DNA of 64,000 nt, from contig NKIB01012576.1 of assembly GCA_002256025.1 (NCBI GenBank), positions 1 through 64,000 of the forward strand, read 5' to 3'. Both the position numbers and the translations under genes were made by a program. Origin of the DNA: Asterionella formosa (lineage: Eukaryota). The notes below the pieces were generated by a model that was not told where the DNA came from, did not search any database, and saw nothing but the letters and a program-made list of their open reading frames with translations. Shown here piece by piece: positions 520 through 46,186 of the stretch. The number at the start of each line of letters is the position of its first letter. The first letter of the stretch is position 1.

Positions 520-1487
520 ACTGGTATTACTGGTACGAGATACCGTAACCTACGTAAGGCAATCTTGGCACGAGTACCAGGCAGCAGACGTACGACTGGT
601 GTCAAGAACTAGACTACCGTACTACCGGTAGGTATATGTACATTTTGGTCCTCCTGTACATGATAACAGTACCTGGTACTAGGGAGGTATCTTGTACACT
701 GGTCTAGCTGGGTGCCAGCTACATACGACCAAGTACTTACTACCGGTAGGTATAGCATAACTAACAGGTACACCGAGTAGTCTACCGGTGTGGTTACTAG
801 TTACTGGTACATGCATATGTTTGGCAAAGTCTGCCGGAATTCTACCACCGGGTCGAAACAGCCAATTGCTTGTTCTCCCGTGGTGCTGTGTTGGTGCCAT
901 GATTCTTGAATTGCGTGTTCAGTGCAGTAGTATGTACAACATGTGTAGCTCTCTAGTATACTAAAACAATATTCATCGAATTATTTATTGAAGAGAATGT
1001 ATATTCATACGACTCACATCTACATGTACTGTTGTAGCTAATGATATGAAGAACATTTTTTATGTCGTAGAAAGAAGCACATACCGGGTATATACCGGTA
1101 GTATTGGTACATCACTTGAATCAGTTTCCTCACGAGCGATCCTTTTGCCTTCGCCTTCACTATTTAATTAGTATGGTACCTGGTAGTTAGTACCGGTAGG
1201 GTGCTCCAGCATCGCTCGTAATAATGGTTCTCTTTGCTGTTGGTGTGCTCCTCCCTCCTGCCTGATCGTTGTTGACATTTACATAATATTCTTTTTTGTA
1301 GTGAAAGTTGTCGACTACCGGTCGACTGATAAAATATACAAGCCGGATCAACATATTACAAGCTAAACCCACCATCACTATTACTTACCCTTGCTACGAC
1401 TCGATTTTCAGCCAGAACACCAACTTCGAAAATTTTAAAATCGGAGAAAGCCAAAGCTTGTCTATCGAACAGCCATCGTCATCAGCA

Positions 1488-3674
1488 ATGGAAAGTTCGA
1501 GAGTCTCGTCTAGCAGGTTATGCCACTCCCTGGCAGAATCCGTGACTGCTGGTCAATCGAAGCGTGGTGACTTTCCGTTGATGCGAGCAAAGGCTGCCCT
1601 ACTGGTGATCGACGTTCAAGATTACCTGTCGAACCCATCGACTATGCAGGAAGAACAAGACTACTTTCATACTACTGCCCTCCCTCGAACAATCAACAAT
1701 CTGCAGAAACTCCTGTCAATATTTCGAGAAATGCGAGATTCGCAGGAACAAGGTTGTGAAGTTATTTTTACCTTTCTTGAAGCGCGAACCAACGATTGTC
1801 GCGATGTTTCGTTGGACTACAAGTTATCTGGTCCAAGGCTGTCATCCCTTCCCAACTCTGCTACCGCCCCCGCCTTGTTTTTGTCTGATCTGATGCCCCG
1901 AACGAAGGATGGAAAAGGCGATATCCTCGTACCCAAGACCTCGTGTTCTGTATTTGTATCCACTAATCTTCACTACTTACTGCAGAACCTTCACGTGGAG
2001 CAACTCATTGTTACTGGTCAACTAACAGACCAGTGCGTGGAGAGTGCAGTTCGAGATGCAGCCGACTTTGGATACTTTGTAACGGTGATTGAGGACGCGT
2101 GCGCTGCAATTAGCATGTCATCACATCAAAAGGGACTCTATGGTATGAAAGGCTTTTGTCGGATTCTGAGCACTTCTGAAGTTATGGAGGAGCTCATGAA
2201 TTCACCCAAGGAAGTATTCGTTAGAATGATGCCATTTGAGCATACACAACATTCCGCGCTTTTAGAACCTGAAGGCGTGGAACACTGCTGCAACGAAACG
2301 CAGAGTTCTCTTGCCATCCTTCCCGTTACATCCCCGCTTGATATCTTAAATTCACAAAATGATCTTGTAAATTCCATGTTGACGGCACTAAAATTTGGAG
2401 GTATCAAGTTTATTCGCTTCATGGCGGTTGACGCCTACAATTCCATTCGTTGTAAGGTCGTTCCTTTGGATCAATGTGAAGCAGGAACAACTGTTGCAAT
2501 TGCCAAAGTTTGCTTTGCTGGGCTGCCACCGTTTGGTGATATTGTCCTACCAGATACTGGCTTGGACGCCAAAGGTGTATTGATTGTTTCTCCAGATTAT
2601 GGGACATTGCGAATTTTACCGTATGCCAACAAGACTGCTGTTGTATTTGGAACTGCACACGATGTACCATCACGTCAACTGAGCAACATATGCACGAGAG
2701 GTTTGCTTGCTAGGGTCCTGGAAACTGCGGAAACTAATCATGGCATCACTTTTAACGTTGGAGCTGAACTGGAATTCACCCTGTTCTCGATTGCTACTCG
2801 AAGGCCAGTGGATAATTCCATGTTTGCAAACTCAACAACATTAAACCAGCAAGAAGCCTTTATTGCAGACTGTTATGATCAACTTCGGCAGCAGGCGATT
2901 GATATTGAACAATTGCACGCCGAAAGTGGACCTGGACAATTGGAACTTGTTATCAAATACCAGACAAACCCTTTGCTTTTGGTTGATCAAGTGGTGTTGG
3001 CACGCGAGACAATATATCAAGTTGCCCGCAAGCATGATTGTATTGCCACTTTCCTTCCGAAAACGTTCGTTGATAAAGCAGGTAGTGGTCTCCACCTTCA
3101 TCTTTCGTTTGGGCAAACAAGGACCCCAAATGCTTTCCCTTGTCCGTCTTCACCTCTCTCTATCTCACGAGATGGCCAGTCATTTATGGAGGGCATCCTG
3201 CGACATCTCAAAGGGCTTCTGGCAATTTCATTGGGATCAAGCAATAGCTTTCGACGAGTCGGGCCAGGATGTTGGACTGGTCATCAAGTTGCTTGGAGTA
3301 TCGAAGACAAAGAAGTGCCGCTTCGTGTTTGCATGGATGTAACGAATGGAACTCTTACAAACGTGGAATTTAAACTGTCTGATTCGACTTCAAATCTTTA
3401 TTTATCCTTGGCGTGCATCCTAGGAAGTGGCTTGGAAGGAATTGTGAAGCAGGTGAAGTTAAGACCATCGTTGAATGATTCTTCTCCTGACAGTACCGAA
3501 GGACTTCCAAATTCGTTCTGCAAAGCCTTGTCCTGTTTGGAGGAAGATTCGTTTCTCACTGAGACCATCATGGGTAGGGATTTGAGTCGAGCCTATCTGG
3601 CAGTCCGCCGTGCGGAAGTGGTACACGCTTCTCATAACACTATTGAGCAAGAGGTTGCCGAAGCCCTCTTGTAA
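1488..3674 (+). CDS. Isochorismatase-like cysteine hydrolase fused to a glutamine synthetase I-like (FluG/NodGS/PuuA-type gamma-glutamyl ligase) domain
   Basis: The N-domain has the D-K-C triad motifs LLVIDVQ, PKTSCSVF and GQLTDQCVESAVRDA. The C-domain has GAELEF, HAESGPGQLEL, GSGLHLHLS, NSFRRVGPGCW and NVEFKLSD. First in-frame ATG is at 1488; the ORF is single and uninterrupted. Confidence 0.9.
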   Translation: MESSRVSSSRLCHSLAESVTAGQSKRGDFPLMRAKAALLVIDVQDYLSNPSTMQEEQDYFHTTALPRTINNLQKLLSIFREMRDSQEQGCEVIFTFLEARTNDCRDVSLDYKLSGPRLSSLPNSATAPALFLSDLMPRTKDGKGDILVPKTSCSVFVSTNLHYLLQNLHVEQLIVTGQLTDQCVESAVRDAADFGYFVTVIEDACAAISMSSHQKGLYGMKGFCRILSTSEVMEELMNSPKEVFVRMMPFEHTQHSALLEPEGVEHCCNETQSSLAILPVTSPLDILNSQNDLVNSMLTALKFGGIKFIRFMAVDAYNSIRCKVVPLDQCEAGTTVAIAKVCFAGLPPFGDIVLPDTGLDAKGVLIVSPDYGTLRILPYANKTAVVFGTAHDVPSRQLSNICTRGLLARVLETAETNHGITFNVGAELEFTLFSIATRRPVDNSMFANSTTLNQQEAFIADCYDQLRQQAIDIEQLHAESGPGQLELVIKYQTNPLLLVDQVVLARETIYQVARKHDCIATFLPKTFVDKAGSGLHLHLSFGQTRTPNAFPCPSSPLSISRDGQSFMEGILRHLKGLLAISLGSSNSFRRVGPGCWTGHQVAWSIEDKEVPLRVCMDVTNGTLTNVEFKLSDSTSNLYLSLACILGSGLEGIVKQVKLRPSLNDSSPDSTEGLPNSFCKALSCLEEDSFLTETIMGRDLSRAYLAVRRAEVVHASHNTIEQEVAEALL

Positions 3675-4434
3675 GTCTGTATATTGTATTTTCATATATG
3701 TAAAAAACGATTAAGGCTGTCAATTGTACAGATCGCTGGAATACTATAATTTGGCAATGCCAAAAGCGAAGTCAATACTTGAGACACTCTTGTGATCGGC
3801 GATTTCGGGCTGTTGACGTTCGATACCGCGTTCTCAAGAATTTCTGCGATGAGAACTCTATTGTTGCAGACAAATTCGTAGAGAACCCTCTCCTTTAGTA
3901 CAAAGTTGTGCTACACTCATTGCTTGGTTTGGAGGCGACTATCAAGAAGTTGTGCACGTGTCCATGGATTGATTAAAATAGGATTTACGCTGTCGAGCTA
4001 GCGAGATGTTGATTATGTACTCTCAAGTTGCTTGCTATGACCATCAAAAACTACTATAGTTTTATTTCGCTCATTGACTGGGAAGAGGGCAACTGAGGGA
4101 CCAGTAGGATGGATTTAGCGACAACTAAGAAGAAACTCCGTGACGAGTAAATGCCGAGGCCCCACTATTGTTAGCATGTACTCGGAGGAGACTGCAGCGA
4201 CCACGGCGTTATATAAATTGGTGATATAGGAATAAACTGGTCATCGAAGTTATGCATCTAGGTACCGGTAGCTAGGGTCAGTTCCTATTTTAGTCGGTGT
4301 CACGGAACGGACTATAAGACGACACGACATTTTAAAACGAAGAAGTTAGTCGCGAACCATGGACTTGCCGGACTGTCCATCTGTCAAGGACAACCCGCTC
4401 GAATACAGATGATTCTTTTCTTACATATGTTTTA

Positions 4435-4568
4435 GGAATATGATATTTCGATATTTCATCCCCCTAACCCTAACCCTAACCCTAGACTCTTCCAATCTAG
4501 CTAGCATCTGAACTTAAGGTTTAGGGGTTAGAGTTAGGGTTAGTTAGGGGGACGAAATATCATTTTCC
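4435..4568. mobile_element. Small inverted-repeat (MITE-like) element with telomeric CCCTAA/TTAGGG arms, copy 1
   Basis: Left arm GGAATATGATATTTCGATATTTCATCCCCCTAACCCTAACCCTAACCCTA; right arm GTTAGGGTTAGTTAGGGGGACGAAATATCATTTTCC. A related copy lies at 61920-62077. Confidence 0.65.
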
Positions 4569-5231: not shown

Positions 5232-5717
5232 ATGGACTCTTCGCCCCAATACATCCTGCCACAATACATTCATCAAATGTCATCGCTACTCCCTGAAGGC
5301 ATCGGCTTTGCCACAACGATACTAGATGCATCGACATCGTCGAGCGACAACGAGTCGTTGCATCCCTCACGTTTTCCGCGTGAGACGATGAAACGGAAAG
5401 ATGTGCTCCTCTTTATTCGAGTACTCCTTGACCACCTCGAGTTACACGACCCCCAACTTGGCCAAGTTGTTAGGAGCGTGATATCTCAAACCATTAGAGA
5501 GAATAGGGAAGGCAACCCTCACTACCAGCAACTTGCCCGCTCAGTTCAAGTTCGCGTTCGCGCGTTTGTTGGGGAATGGCACTGGCGTCAAGTATCCTAC
5601 ATTATCTACTATCGGAAGAAAGTATTCAGAATGATGACCAGAAACATTGAAAATAATATAACAACGACCTACTTGGGCTTCAATCCCTTGCAACAAGACG
5701 GGTACGACAAGTTCTAA
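5232..5717 (+). CDS. Hypothetical protein resembling a diatom-specific helical family (FxRVLLxxL...NRxGxPxY...VGExxW)
   Basis: First in-frame ATG is at 5232. The segment LLFIRVLLDHLELHDPQL...IRENREGNPHY...VRAFVGEWHWRQ resembles a motif recurrent in diatom hypothetical proteins (from recall). Confidence 0.6.
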   Translation: MDSSPQYILPQYIHQMSSLLPEGIGFATTILDASTSSSDNESLHPSRFPRETMKRKDVLLFIRVLLDHLELHDPQLGQVVRSVISQTIRENREGNPHYQQLARSVQVRVRAFVGEWHWRQVSYIIYYRKKVFRMMTRNIENNITTTYLGFNPLQQDGYDKF

Positions 5718-5859
5718 TTACCGTTATGGATTGAATGGGGTGGACAAAACTGAGTGTGTGACCTTTAATTGGTATCGCAAGTATGAGAGACCTATGATTC
5801 TAAATGGTAGCACTTGAACATAAATAAACTGAGAACCATGTATAATTATACCATTTTCG

Positions 5860-10477: not shown

Positions 10478-12481
10478 CTAGAGGTCAACAGTATCGCGAG
10501 TAGCATACACTCTCGTGGCATTCGACGGAAACCGAGTTGGTGAACCAGGGGGTTTGCCGACTGGAATAAAGGATGGTCCGCCCTGTCTCCTTAGCTCGCA
10601 AGTCTCACAAAGTGCGCTTGTACATGTGTGGACATTCGTCGCACTGCGGTACACTCCCAGTGAGGAGGATCCATGCAGTCCAGCGACCGGGTGACAGCGA
10701 GGTTTATGTTCCTTCTCAAGAACAGATAAGTCATTCACTATAGATTGAGTTTCAAAACCTTCATGAGGATGGAAGCCAGACCAGCCCGACATGACAGAGT
10801 CATCTTCACCAATTACACGGACATTTCTTGTTTTGACATGGCCCGGACCTTCCGTAGAGTCATGTGTGGACACCGCATCCAGATCAAAGGACTCGTCGTC
10901 ATCATGGCTCGTGTACTTGAGCCCTCCTCTAGATTCTGATGGATCGCTGTTCTTTCGATGGCGCACCAAGAGTAAGAGGACAACTATGAGTCCCACTCCT
11001 GCTATGGCTACAATTGCCGTCGCGCCCCCTGAAATTCCACCAGTAGTGGCAGTGGACCCACCACCAGTGGCACCCGAGGCGCCCGAATCATTATCTGCAG
11101 TGACTGTTACGGCTGTCATATTCACAAATCCAGGAATACCAGCAAACGTGCCGTCCGCATTAGCTTTATCAATGAGTGCCACGAGGCGAGATTCAAAGCT
11201 ACTTGTGTCGTCACCAATGTAGTAGATATCTGTGGGAATGAGAGTTGGATAACATGTGCTGTTGGCGCTCTCAGTATTGCAGGGCGAGGCTGTAAGATGA
11301 AAAGCGTATGAGGGACGCGTAATGAACAAAAAATTAAAAGCATTTTTTCGCCTGTGCCACTTACCAGTTGAATCGCTTTCGGGAGTGAAAAACAACTGAT
11401 TTATTATATATGTCATAGTGTCCACCAACATTCTCCGTGAAGGACACCCTGCCATTTCAGGGGCTACTTGTTCTTGTAAGATTTGACGAACACCTTCGGT
11501 GACATTCGAAAACGAAGCGCTTTTGTCAACCACCAGTGCAAATTTAACCTCATAGTTTACAATGTTGCCATCCTGGGTAGCATTCCCGGAGGCAATCGCC
11601 AAACAGTCAATGCCAGCTTCATTCGATAACGAACTGGGACTAATCGATGAGCTGAGAGGAACCGATGGAGTCATGGCGAGCAGGGACGAAGGAGCGAGCG
11701 ATGGATACACTGAAACTGTCGGAGCTGGTACTCTCGTGGTAGGTGCTAGGAACATACTTGGTGGTGGGGTTACAACTGGACTGACTGTTACTGACGGCAT
11801 CGGGATAGGAGGTGGAGTTACAGCTGGACTGACTGTTACTGACGGTATCGGGATAGGTGGTGGAGTTACAACTGGAGAGGCTGTTACTACCGGCATCATA
11901 ATGGGTGCCGAAACCGGAGGAGGTGTTACTGCCGGTATAACAAACGGTTGAGGCGTTGGAACTGGAGGTTTGGCTTCCACTGGTGAGGGCGTTGCAAAGC
12001 CAACTGGAGGGCGGATCGGCACTGGCGGTTGCATGCTGGGTTGAGACCCTCCGGGCCCAACTGGAGGGCGGATCAGCACTGGTGGTTGCATGCTGGGTTG
12101 AGACCCTCCGGGCCCAACTGGAGGGCGGATCAGCACTGGTGGTTGCATGCTGGGTTGAGACCCTCCGGGCCCAACTGGAGGGCGGATCGGCACTGGTGGT
12201 GGCATACTGGGTTGAGACCCTCCGGGCCCAACTGGTGGATAGAATGGGACTGGAGGTTTGTTAGAGTTGGGCATAGGTGAGGACTTCGGGCTTTTGCCAG
12301 TACCTGTATTAGAGTAACCTGCAGCAGCCGGAAGATGAATAGTATCTTCCAATCGTCGGTTCGACAGCCATGATTCCCTCACTCCACGCTCAGTATTAGC
12401 CGACGCTACCAGAGTCGCCATTGTCAGAATCAAGACGATGATCCCTATGCCTGAAATTGAAGGTGCCTTTGTAGTCATCAT
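10478..12481 (-). CDS. Pro-rich type I membrane/cell-surface protein with RxL motifs; probable 75-nt in-frame intron at 11290-11364
   Basis: N-terminal hydrophobic signal, RRL and RRML motifs, Pro/Thr repeats, a Cys-bounded globular region, TM segment AIVAIAGVGLIVVLLLLV followed by RHRK, and a cytoplasmic HxCxSxxCxxC motif. The intron reads GTAAGT...TTACAG. Confidence 0.8.
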   Translation of the reverse strand: MMTTKAPSISGIGIIVLILTMATLVASANTERGVRESWLSNRRLEDTIHLPAAAGYSNTGTGKSPKSSPMPNSNKPPVPFYPPVGPGGSQPSMPPPVPIRPPVGPGGSQPSMQPPVLIRPPVGPGGSQPSMQPPVLIRPPVGPGGSQPSMQPPVPIRPPVGFATPSPVEAKPPVPTPQPFVIPAVTPPPVSAPIMMPVVTASPVVTPPPIPIPSVTVSPAVTPPPIPMPSVTVSPVVTPPPSMFLAPTTRVPAPTVSVYPSLAPSSLLAMTPSVPLSSSISPSSLSNEAGIDCLAIASGNATQDGNIVNYEVKFALVVDKSASFSNVTEGVRQILQEQVAPEMAGCPSRRMLVDTMTYIINQLFFTPESDSTGKWHRRKNAFNFLFITRPSYAFHLTASPCNTESANSTCYPTLIPTDIYYIGDDTSSFESRLVALIDKANADGTFAGIPGFVNMTAVTVTADNDSGASGATGGGSTATTGGISGGATAIVAIAGVGLIVVLLLLVRHRKNSDPSESRGGLKYTSHDDDESFDLDAVSTHDSTEGPGHVKTRNVRVIGEDDSVMSGWSGFHPHEGFETQSIVNDLSVLEKEHKPRCHPVAGLHGSSSLGVYRSATNVHTCTSALCETCELRRQGGPSFIPVGKPPGSPTRFPSNATRVYATRDTVDL
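12000..12237. repeat. Coding minisatellite, 57-nt unit x about 4.2 (PPVGPGGSQPSMQPPVLIR)
   Basis: Near-identical head-to-tail units start at 12000, 12057, 12114, 12171 and 12228. A 39-nt repeat (VTVSPxVTPPPIP) lies at about 11760-11880. Confidence 0.95.
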
Positions 12482-13326
12482 TGTCCTGTATACTGTAGTC
12501 TTTCTGAAGAACGATCAATCTTGACACTAACACTGGCAGCAATGGCTCTGTATGCACAATGTTGAATGTGAATATCGAACTTTCTTGCGGGGTTGTTTAA
12601 TTCGAATAAATTGTAAGTGAGCGCACCAATGCTTCGCGTTTGTAGTTACAAAACAGAAACGTTGCGAGGCACGCTTGCAGGGAAATGAATTTCGTCTCGT
12701 CTCGCGTCTCCGTTGTTGAAATCACTTTGCTTGGTTGGCTCATTACTGACGAACTTGCTGCCGATTTTGGGCACCTTTTGGCGTTTACTGCACGAGGCAT
12801 TGTGTATGCTTTGCTAACTCTGATGAATTTTCCCACCGAAACAAATGCCGGCTGGCGTATTGAGGATGAAATATCGCTTCAAATGAAAACTCGAGCGAGG
12901 CGGCCAACGTATCCTTCATCCATACATCGGCATGAGGAACATTTAATTATATTCGATTACGAATTTCAAATACTGAAATCAAATCAGAGCTGATTTGAAT
13001 TTTTATTATTCCCGCCATAAATAACATATTATTGTTATGTATAATAAACGAATGCGATTAATGTTATATATAAATGAGACAACCAAAAATACAATTCTCG
13101 TTTTGCAAACGTTTACTAATGTGGGCAGATGCATATTGGCCACGCGCTCACGAGTTTCGTCCATCCTACGGCACATCCGTAGAAGGTATTGCACATACAG
13201 GACGCGCGCGACTTTCAATAGCCTCCTGGTAACCTAGTACCGGCACGTACTCCAACTTGTAACAGGTACTCTGAGTACTCCGGGCATGTGATTCAATTCA
13301 CAAACGCCCATCCATACAAAGCAGCC

Positions 13327-33520: not shown

Positions 33521-33745
33521 ACCTGAGCAGTTGCTCATGCATGCAACCCCTTCCCCCTCTTTATACAGTATGGAAGTGATTACCCCCTACCCCAAGCTAC
33601 CAAATTTTTATGTCTTGTACGAATTATCGCAGCATGCATGCATACTACATGATGACTCCTACTGGCATATGCAATGCGGAAATGATGACCACCAGACTAC
33701 CTATCCTATAGGTCCTGTAGAATTATCGCAACATGGCTGCATATC

Positions 33746-33940
33746 TAATGAAAGGGCGGGAGAAGTCATCCATGCACCTGTATGATATGAAATATGGAAA
33801 TGATCAAATATAGTCTACAAAAGGAGCAGTGCATCATATATGCCCTGTTAATGAAAGGGAGTAGTCATCCATGCACCTGTATATGAATATGGAAATGATC
33901 AAATATACACAAGGAGCAGTGCATCATATATGCCCTGTTA
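33746..33940. repeat. Imperfect tandem duplication of a 90-105 bp unit
   Basis: AATGAAAGGG...GTCATCCATGCACCTGTA...GGAAATGATCAAATATA...GCAGTGCATCATATATGCCCTGTTA occurs twice in a row. Confidence 0.85.
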
Positions 33941-34068
33941 TTTCAATTCCTATGAAATCTCTTGATCTGTTCTGCTCATTTTCGCCACAATCGTTTTCAT
34001 TGTCTGTTTCACTGGACAGCATTCGAATTGATTGTGCTTCAAACAAAGAAATGATCAAAGTCCACCCC

Positions 34069-34445: not shown

Positions 34446-34731
34446 TAAAGCAACTCAGAATGACAACTGGCTATAGTATAAATGTGTTCCTGCAACACCA
34501 AGTAATTGTCACCTATCGCTTTTTCACGGATCACAATACAGTGATAGAATCACTCTGATTGGTTACTATTTTCACTGTTTTTGTCTGTTCCTCTTGATCT
34601 CTTCTTTTTGCTCTTTCAGACTATCAGAGGCTGTTGGTTTGATAAACTGTAAAGAGCATGTTTAGTAAGGAGAGAAACGAGGTGAATAAAGGATGATCTA
34701 GTTGAGGAGAGCGAAATGAGATAGAGTCGAT

Positions 34732-35042
34732 TGTTGCAAAATCTATTTTCCCCGACATACCATAGGCCCTGAACCTATGATTGTTTCAAGAATCGGTTAT
34801 ATTTGATTGAGTTGAAGGTAAGAAGAAAGTCGGATCAAACTTCGTTCTTACTAACTGGATTGTTTCGAGATAATGATCTTGAAACAAGTCTTATCTACTT
34901 CTGTATGATGGTTGGTGTACCTCTACGCACCACATCAGACCAAGTAAGTGGTACTGTTGAATCTTCTCTCCTTGTAACTAGTGTGCCAGTAACGGTACCC
35001 GGAGTTCCTGTCCCACAGTCATCAGGTCGCCATTTTTCAACA
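34732..35042 (-). repeat. 3' LTR of the young copia element
   Basis: Direct repeat of 40032-40342. Confidence 0.97.
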
Positions 35043-38000
35043 CGCTCCTCGGCCAATGGCAGTGGGTTCATGGTCAGGGTGTCGATGTGTTTGTACCCTA
35101 GGATCACGTCACGGAATTTTCGAAAAAGGGCTCCTTGCAATGGTTTTGTAAAAAAATCCGCTAGCATCCGCAAAGTTGGGCAGTGTCGTATGGTAATTTT
35201 GTTGTCCTTGATGCGGTCCTTAATCCAGAAATAACGTAAGTCAATATGCCTAGATTTAGGTCCTGCCGACATTGTTCCATTCTTCTCAAGCTTGATGGCA
35301 CTCTCGTTATCCTGTTCAAGGAAATTTTCAACAATCATATGTCCTTGTGCCATGAGGAACATCTTCACCCAGATGGCGTTAGGCAAATAATCACTAGCTC
35401 CCACAAGTTCTGCCTCCGTCGAGCTTTTTGTATTGAGCTTTTGCTTACTTGACTTACATATGATGCCTCCAGTCCCAAAGGACATCACTCCTCCTGTGTG
35501 GCTCTTCATGTCGGGATGTACTGCATATGATGCATCCACCCAGGATCTCATTCTTCCCATATCATCTGCACCTAATGTGTATTCGAGGTCCATGGACCCT
35601 CTGATATATTCCAGCAGACGTTTGAGTTTCGCTTGGTCCTGTGTGGTGCTTTTGGATACCCTTGTGCACAGGAAACCAACAGCCAATAGTATGTCCATCC
35701 TTGCCCTTATAGACACATACAGGAGCTTTGCCACTATTTTGTGGAAAGATTCGGCCTCTTGCTTACAAAGTACTAGCTTGGCTCCATCATCAACGTCAAA
35801 CAGATTCTTTCTAGCTGGTGTAGCAACAAACCTCATGATCTCTAGGCCTGATTCTATGATTGCCTCTATAAGGTACTCCTTCATCGTAATTACAGCGGTG
35901 CGTTCATTAGTGTATCGTATGTTCATTCCTAGAAACACATGTTCCTTCCCTCTGGTCACTGTCATTTTGTCGAAACGTTTCTCGATTTTTTTTTATGATC
36001 ATGGTTACTACTGCAGGTTCCACATGGGAAATCTTGTTGTCGTCAATGTACCATGCAATTGTACACTGACTTCCATCAATTATACAGTTCGCGATGCATG
36101 GGTCATAGGGATTAAGTACAAAACCCATTTTGTTTAGGGTGTTGTTAAACAGATCGTACCAGAGCAGAGCCGATTTTACACATCCGTAAATCGCTTTCAC
36201 TAACCGGACATAGAGCACCTTAACACCTTTTTCCACAGCTATGATCCTCTTGTGCAGTGGGTTCATCTCACACAGTATGGCAACTGCATCGTCCATGAAC
36301 TTCATCACCACGAAATCGTCCATGTCTGCCTTCAGGTATGCCCCCGTCATGTCTGCGGTGGCCACGTCCCTTCCTTCATGCGCGTCCACAATTATAGACA
36401 GCATGAGTGCATCGGTGGACACTGTTGGTGATGCAGTCTCAGACTTGTCATACAACATGTGCTGTGTTTGTCCATCTGCTACAGTTCGCCCTTTAAGTCG
36501 TCCATCTCGTTTCTCTTTGATCAGGTTAATCGCCCTAAGGGCGCCCTATTTTGTTCTTTGGTCAGGGACAACGGATTCATGGACTCGTACACATTCAGAT
36601 CCTCCAACTGTGCAAACTCCGCCATCAGTGCTTCCTCGGCTACCCTTCCATGTTTCTTTATCCCTGCTTTTGCCGTCATCTGCGTCATGATATGCCCAAA
36701 AACGAGGGCCCTTATGCTCTCGTCGCTCAAAGGTGATCTCGTGCACATGGCTCCGTGCTGTATGAACTGCATTGGCGGGTAGTAGGACTTACTGTTATGT
36801 GGGTTGTCCATGGACTCCTCAAATGACTGGGCGGCCTTATTGCCTCCACGATCCCGAAGGTTGTATGTTCTGGTGGGAGAGGTTTGCTGCATTCCCAGCC
36901 ACTCGGTTGTTGTGGTCGTTGCCGCCTTCTTCGCGTTGCGCTCCTACAACTACCACCTGTTCTCCTTGTTCGTATCCTACATTTTCGTGGTAGGTGATGT
37001 CTTCTTCGTATTCGCTTTCTTCGTCGAGTTCGTCTTCTTCTTCGTGTTCGATGTCCAGGGCTCCTAGGTTGCCTTGGTCGAAGTTTGTGTCATCACATTC
37101 TTCAGTTTCGAGACCATCACCAACGAGAACATGAGGTTCGGTCTCATTTCCCTCAATCACGATGTGCGCTTCTTGGTCCACTGCGTCATTCTCAGGCTCG
37201 GAGGCATTGGCAAGCAGATCGGCGATTTCTTCTTCGTCGATGGGTGCGAAAATGTCGGCCTCAAAAGGATTGTCCTCAGTCGGTGTATTGCCAGGCTCAG
37301 TGTAGTCGCGGTCATATTCATCATCGTCAATGGCCTGGTCGGGGCGCCATTCAACAACAAGACCACGCTCCTGTATGGGGTGTTGCCCATCGTGTAGGGC
37401 AATGGCCTCGACGCAGGCGATGGCGGTGTCAGTGATGGGTAGCAGGGTCCATTGGTGTCTGGAAATCTTGGCTCCGGTGGCAAGCGACATGAAATAGTAG
37501 TCGCCTTGCGCGTTGCCGGTGGGGTTGAGAGATATGGCCCCTAAAGATTGGGAACGTGGGGTGTTTGAGGGGTCGTTGTCTTCGAATACTTGTACGTATG
37601 AGCCAAATTCTAGTCGCGTGTTGTTGTAGTCGGGGTTGGCAGCACCAGCGATGATACAAGCTGGGCTAAGCGTATCTGAAACCCCGTTCTTGTGTGGGAA
37701 TTGGTTCAAACATCGCACAACATCGGCGACCATGTGGGTTATCATTAGTTTTGGCAGGCGCTTGAAAGGTAGCCCGTGAACGCAAGCACGGATTCGCTCC
37801 TTAATGGTGCGAGTAGAGCGTTCGATTTCGCCAACATGACTGTCAGTGGGCACGATGTTCATTTCGATAGGACGGATGTCTTCACGAATGCAATCGAATT
37901 CATTATCTGCATGTATATCGCGTACTGTTAAACCGCGTGATTGATACATCTGTATGGCGGCTTGAGTTTCACGAAGAATGGTGGAAGACCGGCGGTCTGG

Positions 38001-39983
38001 GACCGGGCTTACGGTCCGGAAACCAATTCCACGTGATATCGTGTGGTGGAATATGAGCCCTTGCACAAAAAAGAAATCTACACACAGTGTAATGTTGTGG
38101 TGATGCTTCAGGATGGGTGCTGGTATGGGCACGGCAATGAAGGTTGGAGCGCGTGGTGTAGCTTCGGACCGGGTCATTTTTCCTTTGAGGACAGCAATGT
38201 CGGGGCCATAGATAAGGAGTGCTCGTTTGGCATCGTCTGGTGTCACCGGACAGTTCCGAATGAGGTTCTTTCTGAGGATCGATTGGAACTCGATCTCATC
38301 AGGCCGCCCAATTTTTCTGTAAAGATCCCTAGCTTCATCAGCCAATTTGATTTCCCGATGCGAAAACATTGTTTTTTGTTGTGCTACTGTGTAGACCATG
38401 GTGCACGCGTTGACACAGTTACTAGTAGCGTTAGGGTTGAAAATATAGAGTCCGGAAGGGTGTCCAATAAACTTCATGACCGGTCCGTCAAGTCGGTGTA
38501 CAAATATGGTTGGTTCCTTAGATGTATCCATGGATACCTTGCATACTTTGCGCACATCGGCAAGTGACAAAATGTTGGCATTGGAATCGGGGTTGTACCA
38601 CACCTGTCCAAGGTTTGGGAAGTCACCAATCATGTTGGAATCCTGGTGTCCCCCATTTGTCAGTGCGCGGAGTACATGTGGACTGCTTCTAATGTTCTGT
38701 AGCATTTGCGGGTTCTTGAACACAGAGATTGTGGATTGCGAGTCCAGAAGTATCCAGTTAGGGTCGATATTTGTCTCATTTGCTTGGGCAAGCATGTACG
38801 CATGTTGCACCAATGTTGTGCCAGTGTTCGTCGTTCCTTGTGTCTCAGGGCAGTCGCTTGCATAGTGCCCAATGTTCTGGCAGTTGTAACATATGACGTC
38901 GTCATGTGTCACTCCGTTGATGCCGGCGGTCGCTCCTCGTTGTGTGAAGGTCATGGCACTGGCCTCAGGGCTACCAGCGGGTTGACTGGGGGTTGGGTTT
39001 CTGGCACGTGTGTTTTCGGGGGTCCTGTAGTTCACAAGTAGGCTGTAGGCTGATGCAATGTCGGTCGGGTAATCATCCTTCCCCATTGTGTACTGATTGG
39101 AGAGACCAACGATGAGTGTGCCATATCTGGTTGCATCAGCACCACGGATTAAAGCAATTGCAAGGGTTCTATCACGTGCAATGGCCTTCCGCTCATCAAT
39201 GCTGCATATGGTTCCGTCGTCCGCAGCCATCGGGACCAATTTGTGATTTTCGGCAACCGTTCCGCCATGGTACTCAATGGTGTCAGCGCAACCTTTTAGG
39301 GTCTCAAGGTAAGCGTCAGCTGTTTGCCATTGTTGCTGTCGGCAGGTTAGGAAACTGGTTCTTGCATCGAGGAGTGATATAAACCCATTGCGCTTCTCGT
39401 CAAACTGCAACGTAATGGCCTTGATCTGCTTGAGCAACCAGAAACAATCATTGTCTACAGTCTTGGCCTTGTAATCATCAAGTGACTTTACTTTGGCCTT
39501 CATGGCCTCGCTACACTGCCCCCAAATCACGGCATGGATTGTGGCTAGGTTGCTTCTGAGGGTGTGGGTACGCTTCACGTACTCCTTGACTTCCTCCGCC
39601 CAAATGTTTTCGGCTGTTTTACTTGGGTCCTTCCCTGGGTCCATTGGCATGGAGACTGTTGGGGCCTCCATTTTGTCGGCAAATAGTGTGGCAAGGTCTT
39701 CCGAGTACTTGAGGGACTTCTTGACATATCCTTCCAAAGCCTCAAGCGTTTTGCTGTATTGACGACGGTCACTCTGTTCTTCGTAGCACTCAAAAACTTG
39801 ACCGTTCATGTCATCGTCGGTGGTGCTGCGGAAGTTGGTGCGTGCTGGTCCTGGTCCACGGCCTCTGCGTCCTCCTCGTCGTCCCCTTCCGCGACCTCTG
39901 CTGCCGTTGGTCCGCTGCGATCCAGTGGTGCCGTTCGGTGGCGCTGTAATGGCATTCTGTGCTGCTTCGCTGGCGCTGATCAT
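34895..39983 (-). pseudogene. gag-pol polyprotein split by about three frameshifts
   Basis: Zn knuckle CYNCQNIGHYASDC, protease LLDSQS, integrase CVDFFF/HADNEF/EIER, RT WYIDD, RNase H WVDASYA/STEAEL/QDNESAI/ADFFTKPL. The pieces are 39983-36837, 36892-36521, about 36520-35990 and about 35990-34895. Confidence 0.92.
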
Positions 39984-40031
39984 TCTGCTCCTTTATTTGA
40001 GTTTTGTTATATATATTTTATCTCGAAACAA

Positions 40032-40342
40032 TGTTGCAAAATCTATTTTCCCCGACATACCATAGGCCCTGAACCTATGATTGTTTCAAGAATCGGTTAT
40101 ATTTGATTGAGTTGAAGGTAAGAAGAAAGTCGGATCAAACTTCGTTCTTACTAACTGGATTGTTTCGAGATAATGATCTTGAAACAAGTCTTATCTACTT
40201 CTGTATGATGGTTGGTGTACCTCTACGCACCACCTCAGACCAAGTAAGTGGTACTGTCGAATCTTCTCTCCTTGTAACTAGTGTGCCAGTAACGGTACCC
40301 GGAGTTCCTGTCCCACAGTCATCAGGTCGCCATTTTTCAACA
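40032..40342 (-). repeat. 5' LTR of the young copia element
   Basis: Direct repeat of 34732-35042; the gag ATG lies 49 nt downstream at 39983. Confidence 0.97.
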
Positions 40343-40757
40343 TCGATAAAACGTAAAATTATAAAGAAAAGTGAAAAGTTTCTAAGCAGTTGTCTATAGT
40401 TGTGACTGTTCTGGTCAGATATTGACCCATCTGACACGTTGTATTGGCCTTATACGTATTCATGTATGATGCAAATTACATATCACTGCCTTTTTCTGAA
40501 AGGTTGTTAGTTCATTGCTCTGCTTTACCTAACTGTATGCTTCACAAGACTATTTTGATTAAAACTACATTCCAAACTCCGGTTAATCGACTGGGATGTA
40601 CCCCGCACTATGATCTGTGTAGGGATATAAATTTATCTGGGATTAGGACGCGCCCAGGTGATGTCGTTTTCAAAAACGGGGTCATAAACGCAGAACAGGG
40701 GGAGTGCAACAATTATAAATTGTCTCTTCAAAACGTTTCCTCCTTCAATAGCGAATT

Positions 40758-41207: not shown

Positions 41208-42067
41208 TGTTGAGATGATCGCTGGGGACGAAAAATTACAGGTCAAGTGTTTCTTTCCGAGCACTTTGATGGCTTGTCGCCTGCTTCTATGAATATATAT
41301 CGGGAACTTCGAACTACCGGTATTTGTAAGCAATGCTAAATCGGATACAATTTTCCTACGTTCTTGTTAACACGACCAAGTTCATCAGACCGTGTATATT
41401 AGCAATAGCTTGTGATGGTTTGGCCAAGAAGAATATCATTGATTCTCGACAAAATGGACGTGAGTCAACCAATGAAACGAGGAGTGAGGTGCTCCATCGT
41501 CAGACAAAAGCATTATTAGATAACGGTTACTAGCGGCCCGATATCATTCCGATTGTTTTTTGCAAGAATAACATACCAGTACTATACAGTCTACGTACCC
41601 GTATTATGTACCGGTATGAATATTCCTCGGAGTCAGAAATAAAAGTGCTGTACATACAGGACATACTGTGTTCTCATTTTCATTAAACTGTAACGGGAGG
41701 TAACGGTAATATCCCTTGTGCGTTAAATCCTCACGATACATATGAAGGCACCGCCGGGCCGGCCAACTTAGAACAACATCAATGCATCCATGCATATGGA
41801 GTTGTATATTCCTTCTTTTATATGAGGAGCTTTTGCTGATGACCTCATAAGATACCTGGATATGTATCATTATGTACTCATTAATTTAAACACATCCCGC
41901 TAATCGGGATTGATGTACAGTACATACAGGATCGATCCCCACCCAGTAGTGTGCATCCTTTGAAAAAAACCAATTGCTCCACAATTACGATCCGCATTGA
42001 TACACATTGCTTATCAGTTGTTATCTTCTTCTCTTTCAAGAGCCTAGTCAAACCTCCATCTCTCATT

Positions 42068-43768
42068 ATGCCTGGCTGGCTCAAGAATAAATTGTCAAAA
42101 GCAACAGAACCCGTCGCGGCAAACGCCGATGATGAGCTCGAGCCAACTGTTACTTCCTGGAAAGCTGCAGGTCTCAAATGCAATGCGCTTGCGCTCGATA
42201 CTGTAGAGCTTTGTCGTGGAACAGAAGTAATGGGGGATAATATGCTGAGTATTGGAACTGAACTTCAGGAGACACTTAGTGGCTTTCAGGGGGCAGTGGA
42301 TGCTTCAGCCTTTGCAACAATTCAGAATCTGTTGAGTGGTGACAAGGTGCACAATGCTTTGGGTTTGGCCAGGGATATGAAAACTAAGGCGATAGAATGT
42401 GTGTCAAAATCAGTAGAAATGATCCAAGTTATGGAAGATGCGATAGAGAAGCTGCCAGACCCAATCGAAAAGGCAATCAGGAATGTGATGAAAGCTAAGC
42501 CTCACAGCAAGGCTTCCAAGAAAACCTTGGAATCAGTTTCGAATTTGGACAAAGATATCGAAGATGTTGCGACATGCATTACTTCAATTAAGGAAATGAA
42601 TTTATTTACAGCCTTGGAAGTTGGTCTCAAAGCATTTGAAAACTTCAAGAACAAAGCCAAAGTATCCAGAGACTTGTTTTGTGAAATCCGAGGATACTCG
42701 CAGACAGTAGTCGACATTACAAATGCTTTTAACGACCTTGATGTTGTCACTTTAATACGCAAGGTCAAGGAAATGTGGAAGTGTATCAAGCTAACAGGCT
42801 TGATGAGAAAACTTGCTGAAGGTCTAGGCAAGCTCATTGGTATTGTGATTGATTTGTTTGAAGAAACGTCAGGAAGAGTTGCTGGTCTCTGGAAGGCCCT
42901 TGCATTTGCAAAAGATTGCATGATGGACTGTGCCTTTCATGTAAAGGAGGCAAAAGCTCTGTGCTCTGATGCAGCAAAGAAGAGCTCCACCCTAGTAAAT
43001 GAGTCTCGTGCCATCAAGTGCCAACTTGAAGATATGGGTGCACTAAATGCTTCATCGCTCCGGGCATTTCGTGACTTGGCGGATGGGGTTGAAATTCGAA
43101 GTGCAATCGCCATAGCTGAAATAATGGAAGGCCTAGTCGTGAAATGTGCAGAGAAGGCTGCGTCAATGGTTGATCGAGTGCAGGAAGGCTTTGCAAACCT
43201 GCCTCCAATCGTGACTGATGGAATCCCCCCAGATGCTGGGGAAGAAGAAAATGATCCAAAGCCAGCTAATGTTGAAAGAGGGATTTCGGATTTGGAGGCT
43301 TGTAGAGTGTCCATTGAAGGTGCTGATATGTTCCACGCGCTGACATCTGGGGCACGCGGCTTCTCCGAGGTCTCTATCCAAGTTGACTCTTGCACGCAGT
43401 TGCTTGGCTTGATTGAAGGTTTTGCACAATCGTGTCTTGATGCAATCGAATCTTTTATGGGAGTATGGGATATTGAAAGTGCCAGGGCAAAGATCATCAA
43501 ACTTCTTCGTCTCGGGAACTTGGGTAAAATGATGAAGCAAGTTGCAAATCAAGTCAAGAGACTAGTTTTTGCGGTAATTGCATTGCTGAAGACTGCAGTC
43601 AACAAGTTTTCAGACATGAATGTGAATGATCTCAAAGGCAATATTGGCAAGAACTTGAATCAGGTATTAGGTTTTGTGAAAAATGTTGACATTGAAGGCC
43701 TGAATAAGCTCAATTTTGTTGAAGTGAATGAGAGCGCTGATTCTTGGTTAAGGAATAGTTGCTGCTGA
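42068..43768 (+). CDS. Uncharacterised all-alpha/coiled-coil protein made of two tandem ~250-aa repeats
   Basis: 566-aa ATG-initiated ORF. The halves align by eye (ALGLARDMKTKAIECVSKS..EKLPDPI vs AIAIAEIMEGLVVKCAEKA..ANLPPIV; NLDKDIEDVATC vs NVERGISDLEAC). Confidence 0.8.
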   Translation: MPGWLKNKLSKATEPVAANADDELEPTVTSWKAAGLKCNALALDTVELCRGTEVMGDNMLSIGTELQETLSGFQGAVDASAFATIQNLLSGDKVHNALGLARDMKTKAIECVSKSVEMIQVMEDAIEKLPDPIEKAIRNVMKAKPHSKASKKTLESVSNLDKDIEDVATCITSIKEMNLFTALEVGLKAFENFKNKAKVSRDLFCEIRGYSQTVVDITNAFNDLDVVTLIRKVKEMWKCIKLTGLMRKLAEGLGKLIGIVIDLFEETSGRVAGLWKALAFAKDCMMDCAFHVKEAKALCSDAAKKSSTLVNESRAIKCQLEDMGALNASSLRAFRDLADGVEIRSAIAIAEIMEGLVVKCAEKAASMVDRVQEGFANLPPIVTDGIPPDAGEEENDPKPANVERGISDLEACRVSIEGADMFHALTSGARGFSEVSIQVDSCTQLLGLIEGFAQSCLDAIESFMGVWDIESARAKIIKLLRLGNLGKMMKQVANQVKRLVFAVIALLKTAVNKFSDMNVNDLKGNIGKNLNQVLGFVKNVDIEGLNKLNFVEVNESADSWLRNSCC

Positions 43769-45069: not shown

Positions 45070-46186
45070 TTCCCATGAAACACTTTGCAATAGATAGTCA
45101 AATGTTTTTCTTGGGCATTTGCGATAAATCAAGAAATTTCCTTTTCATTTTTGAATTGAACAGCATTGTAATGGAATGCATGCAACCTAGCACGACATAA
45201 TATTCATGATATGGAGGAACAACACTACCGGTACCGGTATTGGGTATGCATACCGGTACATATTGGCTACCTGGTACCAGGTACCAGGTACCGTTGACAG
45301 GACATTGTATGGTGATGTAAAAGAATGGCAGCAACTAAGCAAATACTGGTAGCGAAACTGATAGCAAATTGGTTTCGCCCTCCTTTTTTCAGCAGAATCA
45401 GACGAAGTTCCAGCCGAAACCAATTCAAAACATAGCTACCGGATCCCTGCTACCGTATATGCTGGTATATAATTACAGAATCGGAAAGTATGCATTTACC
45501 GCTACCTGGTATTCTGTTTTGTCTTTATATACCGGTACCGGTAGCTCCATTTTGAAGTGGCTGACGATCGATAAATAGAAATACAGGTATATTTTTCGTT
45601 CTTCATATTTTACCACCACATGCATGGTTTTGTGGTACAGGTCTCTGTACCATTACGACAGTACTGGTAGACCACCTGGTACCAGGGTACTCAAATCCCA
45701 CGTAGTCTATATTTACAGGTTACAATAGCTTATCACCCACCTTGAAAGTTTTGTACCCGGTACTAGGAGGCAAACAATCAACTCGTACAAGGTACCAGGT
45801 ACCAGGTACCAGTACCCAGATCGCATACCTAGGTGCGGATCTTCATGAAGGACAGCTGTGGTCACAGCTGATGCAACTGCTGTACTCCGAGAATTGCACT
45901 GGTAGCTGGTACCAGGTAGACTATGGTACCAAGTACCAATCCCGGTATTTTACACATTTGATGGACGTTTCAAAACAGATGTACGGCACGAGTAGGACAA
46001 ACAACAGTTGCCTCATCCCTTCGTTAAGCCATTATGTATGTTCTTCTGTTGTTTTAAAAGGACTGGACCAATCCTGCGTTATCGCAGAAGGGAACATCGG
46101 TGATATTGAATGTTCTAAAACTTCGTCGGGTGTTGACTCAACTGTGTATATCGTTCATTTTTTTGCTTTTATAGTTGAGCTGCATC

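Follow-up and report, generated by a model that had tools for sequence, protein, structure and literature searches.

A diatom Ty1/copia retrotransposon family with a primer-binding site complementary to its own LTR: comparative evidence for probable Tf1-like self-priming

In the retrotransposon Tf1, the first 11 bases pair with the primer-binding site (PBS) and the RNase H cut falls between bases 11 and 12, according to the available part of the source (PMC7175516). Proof of such self-priming is confined to the Tf1 group of gypsy elements, as far as the accessible portions of this literature go. Among Ty1/copia elements, an earlier proposal of self-priming concerned Houba and Osr-1, and a prediction exists for the TAR lineage of plants; as a criterion, the accessible part of that study asks for 10 nt or more of the LTR to complement the sequence that lies 0-5 nt past the 5' LTR (PMC6317226). 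The mechanism itself is therefore not new, nor, given this prediction for plants, is it unprecedented for copia elements. The fungal GalEa copia elements have no tRNA PBS and carry a local palindrome at the PBS position, for which no complementary LTR sequence was found (PMC5445492). From diatoms, the CoDi copia elements including Blackbeard have been described (Maumus et al., 2009; PMC2806351). An initial annotation of the locus presented here cited a proposal of self-priming for Blackbeard; this attribution finds no support in the main text of that study, where the words 'priming', 'tRNA' and 'self' each occur 0 times. Our literature search found no paper reporting self-priming for diatom copia elements.

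We analyzed a stretch of 64,000 nt from the diatom Asterionella formosa (contig NKIB01012576.1, positions 1 to 64,000; hereafter the window), which contains a Ty1/copia element with both LTRs at 34732-40342 on the minus strand (Table 1). Judged from its sequence, the element belongs to a copia family of diatoms that is large and apparently transcribed, with a PBS that pairs with the putative 5' end of its own RNA. We posit that this family probably primes reverse transcription with its own RNA, in the form known from Tf1. The initial annotation had proposed self-priming for this copia element, and the comparative evidence supports its interpretation, as the architecture recurs with matched double changes in 40 related loci.

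As in Tf1 and Tf2 of Schizosaccharomyces pombe and in Tf1/sushi elements, so far as the available sources describe them, the PBS beside the 5' LTR complements what would be the start of the element's own transcript, and no tRNA-type site is apparent. Unlike Tf1/sushi elements, which have a gypsy reverse transcriptase and an integrase behind reverse transcriptase and RNase H, the diatom element belongs to another superfamily, with an RVT_2 reverse transcriptase and the integrase fold before it. The duplex comprises 14-17 nt in the diatom family versus 11 in Tf1 (as given in the accessible part of the Tf1 literature), the pairing usually includes the last LTR base, and a stem-loop is present at the U3/R junction. 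Furthermore, Tf1 self-priming is experimentally proven, whereas the diatom family is described here from sequence. With the plant TAR lineage (Houba, Osr-1) the element shares the superfamily and the computational self-primer signature (PMC6317226, available part), although the TAR hosts are land plants and the likeness is one of published signature; the accessible part of the TAR study mentions neither covariation nor a motif at the start site. GalEa resembles the diatom family as a copia element without a tRNA PBS and with a conserved structure at the PBS position, but the GalEa site is a local palindrome, while the partner in the diatom family lies in the LTR, 71-177 nt upstream. The CoDi elements, Blackbeard included, have diatom hosts, the copia superfamily and TG/CA LTR ends in common with the family described here, of which named relatives occur in Fragilaria crotonensis.

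Table 1. Features of the Ty1/copia element in the 64,000-nt window.
Feature	Position	Strand	Remarks	Basis
Target-site duplication ATCGA, upstream copy	40343..40347	(-)	sense ...TATCGA before TGTTG	
5' LTR	40032..40342	(-)	311 nt, TGTTG...CAACA	alignment of the LTR pair, 2 mismatches/311
Stem-loop across the U3/R junction	40160..40187	(-)	pairing of TCA and the first arm bases with a near-copy of the PBS in U3	predicted fold
Initiator-like TCATT	40172..40176	(-)	putative transcription start, 40174/40173	
Putative self-primer, LTR arm TTATCTCGAAACAAT	40159..40173	(-)	putative nt 1-15 (or 2-16) of the transcript; perfect complement of the PBS	
Predicted R hairpin	40118..40151	(-)	lies in the loop that the primer/PBS helix closes	200-nt leader, MFE and centroid folds
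U5 hairpin	40059..40081	(-)	core CATAGG-7 nt-CCTATG, 40061-40079	U5 segment z -3.33
Primer-binding site (PBS)	40018..40031	(-)	sense TTGTTTCGAGATAA, adjoins the LTR; pairing extends to the final A of the LTR (40032)	
gag (CCHC knuckle), protease region and integrase frame	36837..39992	(-)	1051 codons; first ATG 39983..39981	
Reverse transcriptase (RVT_2) and RNase H region	34895..36943	(-)	two frames, three frame changes; last frame enters the 3' LTR	
Candidate polypurine tract	35043..35054	(-)	sense GGCCGAGGAGCG, purine-rich, adjoins the 3' LTR	inference from sequence
3' LTR	34732..35042	(-)	311 nt, TGTTG...CAACA	alignment of the LTR pair
Self-primer arm copy within the 3' LTR	34859..34873	(-)	also complementary to the PBS	
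Target-site duplication ATCGA, downstream copy	34727..34731	(-)	sense CAACA, then ATCGA	

The assignment to the copia superfamily is based on coding region and insertion structure. The reverse transcriptase matched PF07727 (RVT_2) with an E-value of 4.8e-12 in the window; the full-length relatives P0002, P0003 and P0024 gave E-values from 1e-16 to 1e-19. At the sequence level, the integrase gave no Pfam match even at E-values up to 1, and a PDB profile search likewise yielded none. For the 1051-aa frame, an AlphaFold model computed with 19 aligned relatives reached a mean pLDDT of 63 and of about 90 in a core at residues 625-790, and with this core the model matched the integrases of HIV-1, RSV and PFV in Foldseek (E about 3e-8, probability 1.00). 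Because the frame with the integrase fold ends before the reverse transcriptase, the gene order is that of Ty1/copia. The element has TG..CA LTR ends and a 5-bp target duplication (ATCGA/ATCGA), and with this duplication, RVT_2 and an integrase fold upstream of the reverse transcriptase, it is copia-type.

The edges of the 5' LTR are also visible in the contigs of run X2, which part from the window sequence precisely at 40032 and 40342. The frame changes in pol lie near 36.87-36.90 kb, 36.53-36.55 kb and 35.96-35.99 kb. Contigs of run X1, an RNA library, are 95-99% alike to the element and show indels at the same places, with 34 nt skipped at 36868/36903, an additional base behind 36548 and one base missing at 35986. 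The three changes are due either to genuine decay in this young copy or to indels introduced by the assembly, and because of them the copy in the window could move only with proteins from other copies. The description of the element as young in the initial annotation thus stands with regard to its LTRs, which differ at just 2 positions, but the copy is not intact, unless the three pol frame breaks are assembly errors. Taken as it is, the element is a recent Ty1/copia insertion in a diatom genome with a reading frame that is now broken. About 0.7 kb past its 3' LTR, at 33600-34060, lies a degenerate tandem array with the direct-repeat families D3, D5, D7, D8, D12 and D14 at a spacing of approximately 90-99 nt.

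The 15-nt inverted repeat reported in the initial annotation is exact: the plus strand reads TTATCTCGAAACAAT at 40018-40032 and is the perfect reverse complement of 40159-40173, and likewise of 34859-34873 in the 3' LTR. As the 5' LTR ends at 40032, the second arm begins at the last A of this LTR and occupies with its other 14 nt the exact position of a PBS. Allowing for up to two mismatches, the 15-mer occurs three times in the window, compared with a mean of 0.16 in shuffled sequences, and three occurrences were reached in 0/100 shuffles. By our own arithmetic, about 3e-7 perfect 15-nt complements of one fixed 15-mer are expected in a 311-nt LTR. The LTR-edge PBS is complementary to the site in the 5' LTR at 15/15 nt, which falls within the published operational definition of a self-primer, a complement of 10 nt or more to the stretch that begins 0-5 nt past the 5' LTR, as worded in the available part of the TAR study (PMC6317226). 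A tRNA-type TGG is absent behind the 5' LTR, in line with the annotation, and ARAGORN predicted no tRNA genes in the 64,000 nt of the window.

Relatives of the element are numerous. A protein search yielded 253 of them, many being full-length polyproteins of 1600-1800 aa, and the best 120 of the 253 were metagenome proteins or proteins named from Fragilaria crotonensis. An alignment of 19 relatives was used in one scan of metagenome contigs, which recovered 80 loci with 34-70% amino-acid identity. ARAGORN found one tRNA-Met on 18 long loci of this set. A tRNA-Met gene is located at 4422-4493 of the metagenome contig L049, some hundreds of bases past the estimated 3' end of the related element. 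Contigs at least 90% alike to the window element occur in RNA libraries of freshwater samples and extend across the whole element, with DNA carry-over as a possible source. The four RNA-library runs that were compared consist of assembled contigs, in which the starts and ends of molecules are not visible, and missing contig cover in the flanks of the element carries no weight as evidence.

The 80 loci and the window element, together 445,699 nt, were scanned for perfect inverted repeats with loops of 30-400 nt, and 59 repeats of at least 12 nt were obtained. In 42 of them the second arm lies directly behind the LTR end ..AAC(A), with loops of 71-177 nt; these come from 41 sequences, that is, 40 loci and the window, with L068 contributing two. 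All 41 repeats of 14-17 nt, found in 40 sequences, sit at the LTR edge, where one further repeat has 12 nt (L033). The remaining 17 repeats measure only 12-13 nt and are situated elsewhere, without the context of an LTR end. The same layout of arm and PBS with one mismatch is present in L050 and L075, and L004, L024 and L027 have the LTR end with a PBS of the family type on contigs holding only 41-77 nt of LTR, too short to reach the arm. Neither a recognizable junction nor a pair was seen in L035, a truncated match, and L066, whose LTR-like repeats are 73% alike, although both contigs reach far enough upstream. No arm/PBS pair was found in the other 33 loci; five of them (L007, L009, L038, L046 and L080) have no LTR end on the contig, and of the rest most are fragments with a match starting inside the polyprotein. 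The contig of L068 holds two copies that are 92% alike (277-437 and 5623-5780), each with a perfect arm/PBS pair, and a C/T difference between the arms of the two copies is matched by G/A in the PBS.

For the analysis of covariation, 37 leaders were aligned, consisting of the window element, 34 loci with a perfect pair, L050 and L075. The alignment leaves out L001, L028, L039, L042, L060 and L069, each with arms identical to a retained row, as well as the second copy on L068. The helix between LTR arm and PBS is the only structure that RNAalifold returned for these leaders, with changes on both sides in 12 of its 14 pairs. Across the 15-pair helix, standard pairs make up 97.5% of 554 cells versus 66.8% in column shuffles, 161 cells are changed on both sides versus 43, and the covariation score is 0.769 versus 0.179; none of these three values was reached in 500 shuffles. 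When the partners were slid by 1-3 columns, which keeps the relatedness of the sequences, pairing fell to 41-52%. Two further measures in the 37 leaders were not separated from the shuffles, namely the pairs with a change on both sides (12 of 15 versus 10.6, reached by 44/500) and the number of pair types. The 14-nt PBS itself has 33 distinct sequences among the 37 leaders, with a TGG start in 0/37. The initial annotation had suggested looking for compensatory changes between the arms across family members; in 40 related loci the arms do stay complementary, with matched double changes.

The sequence in front of the arm points to the likely start of the RNA. As described in the initial annotation, TCATT directly precedes the LTR arm on the sense strand at 40176..40172, and TAGATAAG at 40197..40190 starts 23 nt upstream of the A of TCATT. 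The arm is preceded by CA in 37/37 leaders and by TCA in at least 90%, and the next base is T or C, followed mostly by T. Whatever the sequence of the arm, its match to the PBS goes no further than this TCA motif in any of the 37 leaders. TCAH+1W has been proposed as an initiator-like motif of diatoms (PMC4686930), and TCATTCC with +1 at the A is the oomycete initiator (PMC4368664), both as stated in the available parts of these sources. The leader motif TCA(T/C)(T/A) fits both, which is why we place the start at 40174/40173; the RNA likely begins there, as the annotation had predicted.

For the 200 nt from this putative start, the predicted fold contains a 15-bp arm/PBS helix closing two hairpins (-46.1 kcal/mol, z -3.46). 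One is the U5 hairpin with the core CATAGG-7 nt-CCTATG, which the initial annotation had pointed out and which lies within a 10-bp stem of the predicted fold. At the level of the family, RNAalifold returned 0 pairs for this hairpin in a MAFFT alignment of 27 U5 ends, and single-sequence folds of U5 had z below -2 in 3/37. By eye, a small U5 hairpin can be seen in most relatives with a shifting register, and we claim it for the window element only. U5 also contains, at 40080-40091 on the minus strand, 12 nt that repeat part of the primer arm with one C-to-T change and could pair with the PBS via one G-U; this candidate was dropped, being missing in the nearest relatives L001 and L002.

A further stem-loop is predicted across the U3/R junction. 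Junction windows of 65 nt had z below -2 in 25/34 sequences (mean -3.4) versus 7/136 same-locus controls (Mann-Whitney p 4e-12), with TCA paired in 29/34. The end of U3 can form base pairs with TCA and the beginning of the arm in the majority of relatives, frequently around a second small hairpin, and the U3 partner often bears a GAATGA-like motif. Because the paired sequences differ between relatives, what is conserved is a structure. With this stem-loop as a second conserved partner, the primer arm may serve a structure other than, or besides, priming.

If the Tf1 form of self-priming applies, the following course can be proposed. Transcription would begin at the initiator-like TCA/TT of the 5' LTR, at about 40174/40173. 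The first 14-15 nt of the RNA (40173..40159) would fold onto the 14 nt behind the LTR (40031..40018) and close a 126-nt loop of R and U5; the complementarity is observed and the fold is predicted. Tf1 RNA folds back on itself and its primer is released by RNase H, as the accessible part of the source describes (PMC7175516), and by analogy the RNase H of the diatom element would cut behind the duplex, before a conserved CC, whereupon reverse transcriptase would extend the freed 3' end into U5. Plus-strand synthesis would then copy the retained primer, so that the PBS is rewritten from the 5' arm in each cycle. Such rewriting, by analogy with Tf1, may be why the arms remain perfectly matched despite the drift of their sequence. 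More speculatively, the U3/R stem-loop may hide the arm copy of the 3' LTR and leave only the 5' copy free to prime, because the upstream half of the stem-loop would be missing at the 5' end of an RNA starting at TCA and present before the R copy at the 3' end.

Other readings of the arm and the PBS have to be weighed together with priming by the 5' end of the RNA. We consider it distinctly unlikely that the RNA starts upstream of the U3/R stem-loop, in which case self-priming would use an internal arm and the stem-loop would be a switch between a masked state (arm with U3 copy) and a priming state (arm with PBS). The conservation of a stem-loop over TCA and the start of the arm (25/34 versus 7/136 with z below -2, TCA paired in 29/34) speaks for such a switch, and its covariation in sequence indicates a nucleic-acid structure and not a protein-binding site. 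However, the complementarity to the PBS stops at TCA in every leader regardless of the arm sequence, TCA(T/C)(T/A) fits known start-site motifs, and the stem-loop would be transcribed anyway, within the 3' LTR. Quite improbable, in our view, is a role of the inverted repeat in another step, such as RNA circularization, packaging, dimerization or strand transfer, with a different molecule as the true primer. Long-range 5' pairings with such roles do exist in retroelements, but here the second arm begins in every case at the LTR edge, which is set by the 3' end of the primer, and no other conserved sequence is found at the site, with its 33 distinct PBSs in 37 leaders.

If a host tRNA, or an internal fragment of one, served as primer, the family would behave like most copia elements and follow the rule of the superfamily, and both tRNA-Met and half tRNAs have been reported for plant copia lineages, according to the accessible part of the source (PMC6317226). 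For the diatom family such a primer is very improbable, as none of the 37 PBSs starts with TGG and the PBS varies among relatives in step with the LTR arm. The longest PBS complement to the one tRNA-Met compared, which stems from a relative's contig, is 7 nt. Chance complementarity within an AT-rich LTR could draw on the perfect 14-16-nt inverted repeats that also occur elsewhere in the 16-kb region around the element. Its probability is negligible, and it is refuted by the family scan and the covariation counts, with a specific position kept in 40 relatives of different sequence and an observed count reached in 0/100 shuffles. Since the PBS changes in step with the LTR of the same element across 40 related loci, a conserved host tRNA primer and chance are both excluded.

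Should the family indeed prime with the 5' end of its own RNA, it would constitute a second copia lineage of this kind, large and transcribed and with strong covariation of primer and PBS, and tRNA-independent priming would be widespread. It would then have arisen more than once or be very old. The U3/R-junction stem-loop is new here, and neither the diatom lineage nor covariation of this strength was found in the literature searched. In a more far-reaching scenario, possible but doubtful, a copia lineage present throughout the diatoms acquired self-priming of the Tf1 type on its own, separately from the gypsy Tf1/sushi elements and from the plant TAR lineage. It would have gained in addition a device described for neither of these, a stem-loop that masks the 3' primer copy, and a freely drifting primer/PBS pair, by which sub-families may escape small-RNA silencing of a fixed tRNA-type PBS. 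In mammals, silencing by tRNA fragments targets the tRNA PBS, as reported in the available part of the source (PMC12853362), and independence from tRNA could matter for the silencing of such elements by their hosts. For annotators of diatom genomes, the layout provides a simple rule by which the PBS and the U3/R boundary of such elements can be located, and both start site and RNA structure are testable in transformable organisms.

Outside the element, two long open frames of the window, at 41885-43768 on the plus strand (627 codons) and at 10478-12514 on the minus strand (678 codons), had no Pfam match. GGTACC-based repeats, both direct and inverted, cluster at 45220-45925, among them a perfect pair of 16 nt at a distance of 288 nt. 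At 1305-3674 on the plus strand, a single open frame joins an isochorismatase domain (residues 97-291) and a glutamine synthetase catalytic domain (residues 462-784).
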